From: a virus
Lineage: Duplodnaviria > Heunggongvirae > Uroviricota > Caudoviricetes
DNA length: 8,961 bases
Reading direction: 5' to 3' (one strand)
Virus record (IMG/VR): IMGVR_UViG_2548876934_000005
Part shown: positions 2,578 through 3,585 of the stretch, piece after piece
How positions within the stretch are numbered: the stretch's first letter is position 1
Layout: every line of letters begins with the position of its first letter
Made by a program: the position numbers and the translations under genes
The notes under the pieces: generated by a model
The model's input: the letters and a program-made list of their open reading frames with translations, nothing else
Told to the model about the DNA's origin: nothing
Databases searched by the model: none

Positions 2578-3585
2578 ATGAAAAAAATACTATCAGTTTC
2601 CTTCTTTCTCATTGCCTACAGCGTGTATATTAAAATAGCTAATGCAGATGATTTAAAGGAAAAACAATATGTTACTGTAAACATGCCGGACGAAATCGTG
2701 AGAGTTCAATATGTATACACTCCAAATGAAGATAGAGTAATTGAACTTTCGCGTGTTGGACTTAACAAACTTTTTTCTTTTTCCAAATTATACAAAATTT
2801 ATTCAGTACAAGATGCTATCTATCAAAGTGGAAAAATGAATAATCTTTCAACAGTTCAAGTATTCGACACTGATATAATCGGCCCAATTATGGTTAGCGC
2901 AGAAAATAATGAAAATGGGGATGATCCAATAGCTGCGTTTACAGGTGGATGGCATGGTTTTAACCGTGACCAGAGCGGGTCACCTACAGCCAGGCATATT
3001 TCTCTTCAGGTATGGGTTGATGGGAAGATCGTCAAAGATACCTTTAAGGGGTATGCAAATGATTTAGTGATCGAAACCACGTCTAACATCCAAGGGTTTA
3101 ATACCAAAAAGAAAGATGGCTCAGGTAGAGAGATTATTCAACAGAAAGTAAAAATGACCTTTAATGAAGGACGTGTAGATGTGCAGATCAAAATGATTCC
3201 TCTTGAAAAGGTGAGGATACACACCTACTACGGACTACAAACAGCACTTTCTCAACTGTATGCCAACAGTTCGATTCGTTATGAATCAGGTGACTCTCCA
3301 GAATGGAAAGACACCTCCAGCGGACCAAATGATAGTGGCCCTAAGGGTAAATATCCAAATGTTAACAGCATGATAGCCAGAAACAAAAGTAATGATGTGA
3401 TAGTTGCCTGGCTTGATACTAAAAATGGACTAGGTGAAAGATTAAACGTCAGTGATACGTATCCCGCTGCTTTTTTTGTTGGATACAAGAGCTACTTCAA
3501 TTTAGTAAACGGAATTCCATTGACGATATCACCCGGACAGACTGCAGAAGTCAGCGGAGGGTTTGCATGGTTAAAAGGTGAATAA
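2578..3585 (+). CDS. Hypothetical secreted protein (335 aa) with N-terminal signal peptide; no recognisable family
   Basis: ATG-initiated ORF with a classic Sec signal (MKK + hydrophobic core + ANA/DD cleavage-like site). The mature part is hydrophilic with no long hydrophobic segments. About 33% GC by eye, against roughly 50% in the flanks. No motif I can assign. Confidence 0.65.
   Translation: MKKILSVSFFLIAYSVYIKIANADDLKEKQYVTVNMPDEIVRVQYVYTPNEDRVIELSRVGLNKLFSFSKLYKIYSVQDAIYQSGKMNNLSTVQVFDTDIIGPIMVSAENNENGDDPIAAFTGGWHGFNRDQSGSPTARHISLQVWVDGKIVKDTFKGYANDLVIETTSNIQGFNTKKKDGSGREIIQQKVKMTFNEGRVDVQIKMIPLEKVRIHTYYGLQTALSQLYANSSIRYESGDSPEWKDTSSGPNDSGPKGKYPNVNSMIARNKSNDVIVAWLDTKNGLGERLNVSDTYPAAFFVGYKSYFNLVNGIPLTISPGQTAEVSGGFAWLKGE

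Follow-up and report, generated by a model that had tools for sequence, protein, structure and literature searches.

Prophage-driven conversion of the O-antigen sets serotype, phage susceptibility and immune recognition in Escherichia coli, Salmonella, Shigella and Citrobacter. The known conversion modules encode GtrA, GtrB and GtrC, or Oac, or, in epsilon15 and D3, Wzy and its inhibitors. Textbook modules contain Gtr proteins or an AT3 acetyltransferase only, and a conserved exported protein invariably linked to such genes and to a single tailspike receptor domain would be an unrecognised player. Here we analyse a gene of this kind, which occupies positions 2578–3585 (+ strand) of an 8,961-nucleotide stretch recorded in IMG/VR as a virus (IMGVR_UViG_2548876934_000005); the whole stretch is called the window below, and all coordinates refer to it. 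The gene encodes a 335-residue protein with a predicted signal peptide and a modelled galactose-mutarotase-like beta-supersandwich fold, and we see an even chance that this protein is an exported, glycan-recognising component of a lysogenic-conversion cassette, acting in receptor alteration or superinfection exclusion. We know of no lysogenic-conversion module that includes a soluble supersandwich protein, and our search of the AT3 and O-antigen literature found no such component described.

The gene and its predicted export

An initial annotation, made from the nucleotide sequence alone, had proposed the reading frame as a gene for a secreted protein of unrecognised family. RefSeq carries the same coding sequence (WP_024222019.1, hypothetical protein), in a strain that is 100% identical across the window except for one IS421 insertion, and the frame is thereby confirmed. 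The features of the gene are:

2578..3585, + strand: gene for the 335-residue, putatively exported supersandwich protein; ATG start, with support from dN/dS, homologues and the structural model (see below)
2567..2570, + strand: Shine-Dalgarno-like AGGT, 7 nt before the ATG, read from the sequence
2578..2646, + strand: signal peptide, residues 1–23 (MKKILSVSFFLIAYSVYIKIANA), with predicted cleavage between ANA and DD, from hydropathy and the -3/-1 rule

The open reading frame (ORF) is clearly a real gene under purifying selection, as judged by comparison of its alleles, because dN/dS is 0.20 (at a dS of about 0.8) against the 75%-identical allele of E. coli E2348/69 and Salmonella, because all five of the orthologues compared keep exactly 335 codons, and because homologues exist in number. 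Disrupted frames in close relatives had been named at the outset as the sign of a decaying pseudogene, and two decayed copies do exist. In E. coli S1 (locus L042, 3780–5463), IS1 has inserted at the 5' end, so that the first 15 codons, and with them the beginning of the signal peptide, are lost; in an IMG/VR prophage (locus L061, 5916–6931) a deletion has fused codon 321 with the final 21 codons of the AT3 gene.

The Sec-type signal peptide and the hydrophilic mature domain, both claimed in the initial annotation, were borne out. The predicted signal peptide has an n-region of MKK and an h-region spanning residues 4–18, whose 15-residue Kyte–Doolittle mean of 2.13 is the maximum for the protein, and it is followed by a predicted signal peptidase I site (A-N-A before DD) after A23. 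The mature part comprises 312 residues, with a grand average of hydropathy of -0.47 and an isoelectric point of 6.0. The site of action of the protein is extracytoplasmic by prediction. While the window allele contains no cysteine, the alleles P0020 (E2348/69, Salmonella) and P0011, P0013 and P0014 (Citrobacter-type) have a cysteine within the signal peptide, in the lipobox-compatible contexts IIIAC or LSISC, and may be lipoproteins. Since these cysteines contrast with the clean signal peptidase I site of the window allele, alleles of the 335-residue protein may differ in localisation.

The composition of the gene is foreign, as had been noted: it has a GC content of 38.2% (32.7% at third codon positions), compared with 48.6% (54.7%) for the chromosomal yfdC and 46.6% for the integrase gene intS. 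The flanks of the gene are at 47–49% GC, and the low-GC tract extends from about 2400 to 5600.

Predicted fold and conserved residues

Structure prediction with fold comparison, as suggested in the initial annotation, was carried out with AlphaFold2 and an alignment of 23 sequences. The resulting model (mean predicted local distance difference test score 88.8, predicted template-modelling score 0.86) is all-beta, and only the signal peptide is poorly defined. The model resembles several mutually unrelated galactose-mutarotase-like supersandwich proteins, a likeness that holds at the level of the superfamily: all structural matches have at most 12% identity, and Foldseek concurs, with template-modelling (TM) scores of 0.3–0.46. 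On this model, the protein is a new sequence family within a known fold, belonging to a fold superfamily and to no defined family within it. As GH174, a family of glycoside hydrolases, is described as having a beta-sheet-dominated fold (PMC12534559), the fold can be catalytic; in many of the other structural matches, it serves as an accessory or non-enzymatic domain.

An alignment of 157 diverse representatives of the family revealed a set of near-invariant positions (numbered here as in the window protein): D99 (98%), H126 (99%), T137 (98%), N175 (94%), Q221 (97%), K304 (98%) and Y306 (99%), together with N169 (92%), E189 (91%), Y218 (94%), P103, F121, T122, G123, G124, G219 and G327. Several of these fall within three short motifs:

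2938..2958, + strand: FTGGWHG, residues 121–127, containing H126
3226..3240, + strand: YYGLQ, residues 217–221, containing Y218 and Q221
3487..3498, + strand: KSYF, residues 304–307, containing K304 and Y306, kept also in the Pseudomonas phage DDSR119 protein gp23

That this polar constellation is retained in different phyla suggests shared chemistry or a conserved site for a metal or ligand. Glutamine at position 189 is shared by the window protein and 10 other domain matches from nine proteins, including its nearest non-enteric relatives, P0027 and P0028.

Sequence-level searches

At the level of sequence the family is indeed unrecognised, as first claimed. Pfam returned sub-threshold noise only (DUF2712, Glyco_trans_4_3), PHROGs nothing and NCBIfam noise; the family profile had no match among PDB sequences even at E ≤ 10, and tblastn of the window protein against 50,697 phage genomes found no match. 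Literature searches turned up no record of the accessions or locus tags of the protein and no useful account of mutarotase-like tail-fibre domains; DUF4855 and DUF4434, two domains that recur near family members (see below), each came up in one passing mention.

Three specific identities were considered. The initial annotation had pointed to a GDS and a GPND motif with no histidine downstream of them and had concluded that the protein is not a canonical SGNH hydrolase. Both the observation and the conclusion stand: GDS lies at residues 238–240 and GPND at 249–252, late in the protein, and its only histidines are at 126, 140 and 215. The blocks of an SGNH/GDSL hydrolase (I, GDS; III, GxND; V, DxxH) are thus not found in their arrangement, nor is the three-layer alpha/beta/alpha fold, the model being all-beta apart from the signal-peptide helix. 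There was no Lipase_GDSL or Lipase_GDSL_2 match in Pfam at E ≤ 1, in a scan that does find the GDSL domain of DDSR119 gp23. Among the 157 homologues, residues 238–240 are variable (G 34%, D 29%, S 13%), as are the GPND positions; because of this variability and the all-beta fold, we consider the two motifs incidental. For an aldose 1-epimerase (PF01263), there was no Pfam match and no PDB sequence match to the family profile; that enzyme has a catalytic His/His/Glu constellation in its sugar pocket, and H126 is the sole invariant histidine of the family. For a GH174 endo-fucanase, sequence similarity was lacking, as structural alignment gave 6–9% identity and the family profile matched no PDB sequence.

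A large family on phage tail tips and in glycan loci

The initial description of the protein as an orphan was not upheld. A word-index search found 40 relatives, with identities of 75–100% for the enteric and 27–43% for the distant ones, and a profile built from 23 relatives detected 1,372 representatives of 50%-identity clusters at E ≤ 1e-3, 850 of them at E ≤ 1e-30. By these profile searches, the family is large and is covered by neither Pfam, PHROGs nor NCBIfam, and its modelled fold is recognisable.

Many family members belong to phage virions. The best matches in structure searches of BFVD were gp89 of Pseudomonas phage Zuri (E 2.8e-23, TM 0.75), a nameless entry of 1,182 residues (A0A7D7J739; TM 0.77, 23% identity), a tail fiber and a 'distal tail protein'. 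In an hhalign comparison, the domain corresponds to residues 456–744 of DDSR119 gp23 (probability 99.3%, E 1e-20), a protein that ends in a GDSL/SGNH domain and whose gene comes immediately after those for the TipJ tail proteins. In a set of 154 diverse representatives, 82 exceed 430 residues; the domain is at the extreme C terminus in 68 of these, and nine have a hydrophobic N terminus. The long members match 70 PHROGs (77 proteins), the annotated ones being tail fiber, minor tail, neck, tail collar fiber and virion structural proteins. The homologue P0029, encoded within a phage structural module, has an N-terminal part with matches in tail fibers from phages of Klebsiella, Staphylococcus, Streptococcus and Bacillus. 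Judged by these architectures, many tail-fibre or virion proteins of phages have the domain as their distal tip; this applies to the family, the window protein itself being a stand-alone domain behind a signal peptide.

Most stand-alone homologues likewise carry an N-terminal signal, a lipobox or a transmembrane anchor. Among 118 neighbouring genes from 24 non-redundant genome loci, the commonest encode DUF4855 (6), DUF4434 (5) and MCP (4) proteins, sugar transporters, GT1/GT4 and GH3. Bacteroidota loci show the arrangements GH3–member–DUF6259–GH3, DUF4434–member–sugar transporter, member–SusC and DegT–member–MatE; one member lies inside a capsular or extracellular polysaccharide (CPS/EPS) cluster of the Wzx/Wzy type, others adjoin LtaS or a GT-C glycosyltransferase, and some are fused to DUF4855 and an F5/8 type C domain. 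The theme common to these habitats, as read from gene neighbourhoods, is extracytoplasmic glycans. The family repeatedly adjoins or is fused with DUF4855, DUF4434, DUF6259 and GH3 (Bacteroidota loci L016, L021, L024, L025 and L027; proteins P0042 and P0046), and these loci may be uncharacterised glycan-utilisation systems.

The enteric cassette

In the window the gene is followed by these features:

3579..4055, strand not assigned: lineage-specific spacer of 477 bp between the 335-residue gene and the AT3 gene
4067..5140, + strand: AT3-only acyltransferase, putative O-antigen O-acetyltransferase, 357 residues by the RefSeq start (PF01757, 4.5e-35; phrog_3333, O-acetyltransferase, 3.5e-72)
5147..5166, + strand: terminator-like hairpin and T-run after the AT3 gene, the sole + strand terminator-like site within 2300–5300
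5170..6156, - strand: C-terminal 329 codons of a tailspike, a truncated remnant (phrog_22294 and phrog_1640, tail protein) encoding the receptor-side domain shared across the cassette

The gene order is the same throughout the enteric contexts examined (E. coli, Salmonella and Citrobacter): the 335-residue gene comes first, then AT3 or gtrABC in the same orientation, then the tailspike in the opposite one. By gene order, the location beside a gtrABC- or oac-type gene and convergent with a tailspike is that of a lysogenic-conversion module. The initial annotation likened the protein to exported prophage morons, which are often virulence or exclusion factors; such a role may apply here, but a generic moron is too vague a term for a fixed member of a tailspike/O-antigen-modification cassette.

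We found the cassette in at least three prophage settings. Next to argW and intS, as in the window, E. coli CM2010-0578/1 and 2017.01.04CC carry a gene 98–99.6% identical at the nucleotide level, followed by gtrA-gtrB-gtrC. In an epsilon15-like prophage, opposite the lysis cassette, the gene is followed by AT3 (E2348/69, Salmonella), and adjacent to thrS it is followed by gtrABC (Citrobacter, metagenomes). Four IMG/VR prophages have the same cassette arrangement. Across all enteric contexts examined, the last 329 tailspike residues are 88–97% identical to the remnant in the window, and this common C-terminal domain occurs on differing N-terminal modules (Head_binding, 700 aa; Tail_spike_N, 784 aa; and a protein of 895 aa; loci L002, L003, L011, L046, L049 and L052). 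The sharing implies, as far as sequence can tell, either a tailspike receptor common to E. coli, Salmonella and Citrobacter or frequent exchange of the cassette. No solved structure matches the tailspike C-terminal part by sequence.

The cassette is a mosaic. Positions 1–3578 are about 98% identical to the gtr-carrying strains, positions 2568–3574 are 79% identical to E2348/69, positions 4056–6146 (AT3 and tailspike) are 95% identical to E2348/69, and positions 3579–4055 are unique to the lineage of the window. As the homology to E2348/69 starts at 2568, the exchanged unit is essentially the ribosome-binding site and the ORF. Within the block, alleles of the 335-residue gene differ by 25% and those of AT3 and the tailspike by at most 5%; given this divergence and mosaicism, the linkage has outlasted both internal recombination and replacement of the modifier. 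Such persistence argues in favour of functional coupling between the gene and the tailspike/receptor-modification unit, and it speaks against a partnership specific to AT3. The gene is rare in E. coli, in that six of 5,426 complete genomes carry the window allele and four assemblies of the E2348/69 lineage carry the other; the Salmonella allele is recorded in 188 blocks of the assembly collection.

The AT3 gene is 95% identical to its E2348/69 copy. Its longest ORF begins at a TTG at 3983 (385 aa), whereas the start used in RefSeq and in the E2348/69 orthologue is the ATG at 4067; the shorter form is supported because homology to E2348/69 begins at 4056. In the 477-bp spacer we found no ORF of 50 residues or more, no predicted terminator and no Rfam match. 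A search for a regulatory RNA there was likewise negative, the tRNA gene argW being the sole Rfam match, and the ops/JUMPstart element GGCGGTAG is no commoner than by chance. A promoter scan gave fewer sites than shuffled controls. The 175-bp region upstream of the 335-residue gene contains two GATC sites (2401–2404 and 2496–2499), one of them within TCGATCTATCGATAC; gtr operons of P22-like phages undergo phase variation via Dam sites.

The surrounding prophage remnant

Pfam and RefSeq assignments identify the window as E. coli chromosome, with yfdC (1–933) and argW, followed by a prophage remnant that opens with IntS:

1009..1083, + strand: argW, tRNA-Arg(CCU), integration site of the prophage
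1209..2402, + strand: integrase IntS, left end of the prophage remnant, adjoining argW (Pfam Phage_integrase and Arm-DNA-bind_3; RefSeq intS)

The remnant spans about 7 kb, from intS to torI (7771–7971), and nearly all phage functions are gone, yet both the 335-residue gene and the AT3 gene are intact. The 3' end of argW recurs downstream: positions 1054–1069 equal 7736–7751 (16/16), and 1064–1084 resemble 8040–8060 (19/21), so that argW repeats bracket the remnant. Directly after it lies an ORF for a second, P4-type integrase (8155–8961), which runs past the end of the window; because it directly follows the bracketed remnant, the arrangement suggests that two elements integrated in tandem at argW. 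Homology to full-length tailspikes covers only 5170–6156 and ends at 6146. The ORF containing the tailspike remnant extends to 6396 in unrelated sequence and overlaps an Ead/Ea22-like ORF (6077–6973, + strand), and the end of the tailspike looks like a deletion junction in a decayed prophage.

Proposed role and alternatives

In the role that we propose, the prophage would express a Sec-exported soluble protein, a single galactose-mutarotase-like beta-supersandwich domain, and deliver it to the periplasm. There it would bind the surface polysaccharide that serves as receptor of the linked tailspike and is decorated by the linked enzymes, namely the O-antigen or its undecaprenyl-linked precursor, and it might also process this polysaccharide by hydrolase-, lyase- or esterase-like chemistry. 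The outcome for the lysogen would be an extra layer of receptor alteration or superinfection exclusion. The O-antigen as ligand, the catalysis and the phenotype are steps that we infer. Whether the protein catalyses or only binds seems to us evenly balanced: catalysis would be favoured by the invariant polar residues, by the enzymes among its structural neighbours and by the occurrence of stand-alone members in glycan-utilisation loci, and binding only by the fusions to further catalytic domains, by the prevalence of tail-fibre tips and by the two substitutions of the enteric clade (E189Q and N169S). The protein is probably an overlooked part of prophage-driven change of the host surface. An assignment of ligand or activity to the family would improve the prediction of phage host range and could define a new carbohydrate-active or carbohydrate-binding family.

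Several points weigh against this proposal. The classical gtrABC and Oac systems function without such a gene (PMC9558356). Family members are fused to separate catalytic domains (SGNH in DDSR119 gp23; DUF4855), as carbohydrate-binding modules usually are, and Firmicute neighbourhoods are heterogeneous, with no consistent partner. Linkage within the cassette could be physical hitch-hiking, because a single tailspike domain is common to all enteric contexts, which may therefore stem from a small number of transfers. For the catalytic part of the proposal in particular, supersandwich domains are often non-catalytic (YidC P1; the accessory domains of GH2, GH38 and GH65), and the window protein departs from consensus at position 189 (Q for E) and at position 169 (S for N), which could signify loss of catalysis.

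Some of this evidence would be accommodated by a purely lectin-like protein, in which the receptor-binding domain of a tail-fibre tip, redeployed with a signal peptide, binds the receptor glycan or its lipid-linked precursor non-catalytically and thereby masks it, perturbs its polymerisation or ligation, or presents the acceptor to GtrC or AT3. Tail-fibre tips make up most of the diversity of the family, the domain is fused to other catalytic domains in the manner of a carbohydrate-binding module, and accessory or binding roles are common among supersandwich domains. The conserved D/N/E/Q/T residues might form a structural Ca2+ site, and E189Q and N169S occur in the enteric subclade. However, about ten polar residues are near-invariant across phyla although the glycan targets presumably differ greatly, a degree of conservation that is unusual in binding modules, and the closest solved neighbours (GH174, mutarotases, OpgD) use the fold catalytically. 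Stoichiometric masking of the abundant O-antigen by a soluble periplasmic protein would, moreover, be hard to picture. We therefore regard a purely non-catalytic role as rather unlikely.

A bolder and, in our estimate, unlikely possibility is that the gene represents a third kind of surface-conversion gene in P22-, Sf6- and epsilon15-like phages, beside Gtr and AT3: a secreted copy of a tail-fibre tip that belongs to a new carbohydrate-active family and acts as a periplasmic enzyme editing or destroying the receptor. If so, the tail fibres of many phages and the glycan loci of Bacteroidota would carry a new family of depolymerases or carbohydrate-active enzymes.

We consider it distinctly unlikely that the gene is a hitch-hiking moron with an unrelated function, such as a virulence or colonisation factor or an anti-phage protein, or a gene in decay. 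As homology between contexts starts only 10 nt before the ATG and upstream regions differ, the gene is possibly an independent transcription unit; gtr operons have a regulatory region of their own, and 194–215 bp separate the gene from gtrA. The two disrupted copies and the rarity of the gene (about 10 of 5,426 complete E. coli genomes) would also fit such a passenger. Against this, the gene keeps the same position in all enteric contexts, through three prophage settings and despite the swapping of partners, it is under purifying selection, it has stayed intact in a 7-kb remnant stripped of almost everything else, and the fold and habitats of the family point to glycans.

The weakest alternative is a dedicated periplasmic partner of the adjacent AT3-only acyltransferase, taking the acetyl group and placing it on the O-antigen as the SGNH domain of OafA/OafB or PatB/AlgX would. 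It draws on the position of the gene, which directly precedes a codirectional AT3 gene without an intervening predicted terminator (window, E2348/69, Salmonella and other loci), on the occurrence of the window AT3 allele exclusively with the 335-residue gene in complete E. coli genomes (6/6, although these are only two or three lineages), on the phage homologue that fuses the domain to an SGNH esterase, and on a review of AT3 proteins (PMC9558356), which treats the need of AT3-only proteins for a partner as an open question. We nevertheless largely reject it as very improbable, because the modifier is swapped for gtrABC, both after the nearly identical gene of CM2010-0578/1 and 2017.01.04CC and after alleles about 76–77% identical in protein sequence in Citrobacter and an IMG/VR prophage, and because the 118 neighbours of distant family members show no AT3 enrichment; the all-beta fold without SGNH blocks speaks against it as well. 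For the same reason, a split system of AT3 and periplasmic transferase of the OafA/OafB or PatA/PatB kind was rejected, the co-occurrence with AT3 not being obligate. Were this unlikely reading nonetheless true, it would bear on how AT3-only enzymes complete acyl transfer.

Comparison with known systems

By fold, the closest solved proteins are the GH174 endo-alpha-1,3-L-fucanases (PDB 8JD7 and 9K1G), from which the 335-residue protein differs in that there is no sequence-level relationship and in that organisms and substrates are unrelated. Residues reported to be important in the GH174 enzyme Fun174A are D119, E120 and E218 (PMC11943901). The present family has the near-invariant D99 and E189 (Q in the window protein). 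With respect to the galactose mutarotase/aldose 1-epimerase superfamily more broadly (YidC P1, OpgG/OpgD, GH2 domain 5, PL4/PL26), the family has no match to Aldose_epim or a related Pfam entry, structural similarity is limited to the TM scores of 0.3–0.46, and it has a distinct set of conserved residues (D, H, T, N, E/Q, Q, K, Y).

The Pseudomonas putida phage proteins DDSR119 gp23 and Zuri gp89, in contrast, contain true homologues of the domain: gp23 keeps H126, Y218, Q221, K304 and Y306, and Foldseek gives TM scores of 0.75–0.77. They differ in that they have about 1,185 residues and no signal peptide and carry the domain internally or at the C terminus, whereas the E. coli protein consists of the domain alone behind a signal peptide.

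The systems that place a periplasmic protein beside a membrane acyltransferase, namely the SGNH domain of OafA/OafB, PatB and AlgX, resemble the present arrangement in this respect only. The 335-residue protein is all-beta rather than alpha/beta/alpha in its model and has neither a conserved Ser-His-Asp triad nor a conserved GDS/GxND, and its gene also accompanies gtrABC.

By gene order, the closest counterparts are the lysogenic-conversion modules of P22-, Sf6- and epsilon15-like phages. The cassette described here occupies the same niche in the same orientation, bounded on one side by the att/int end or the lysis genes and on the other by the tailspike; the gene adjoins gtrABC or an AT3-only acetyltransferase, and its product is predicted to be extracytoplasmic. 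Despite this shared niche, the 335-residue protein has no relationship to GtrA, GtrB, GtrC or Oac.

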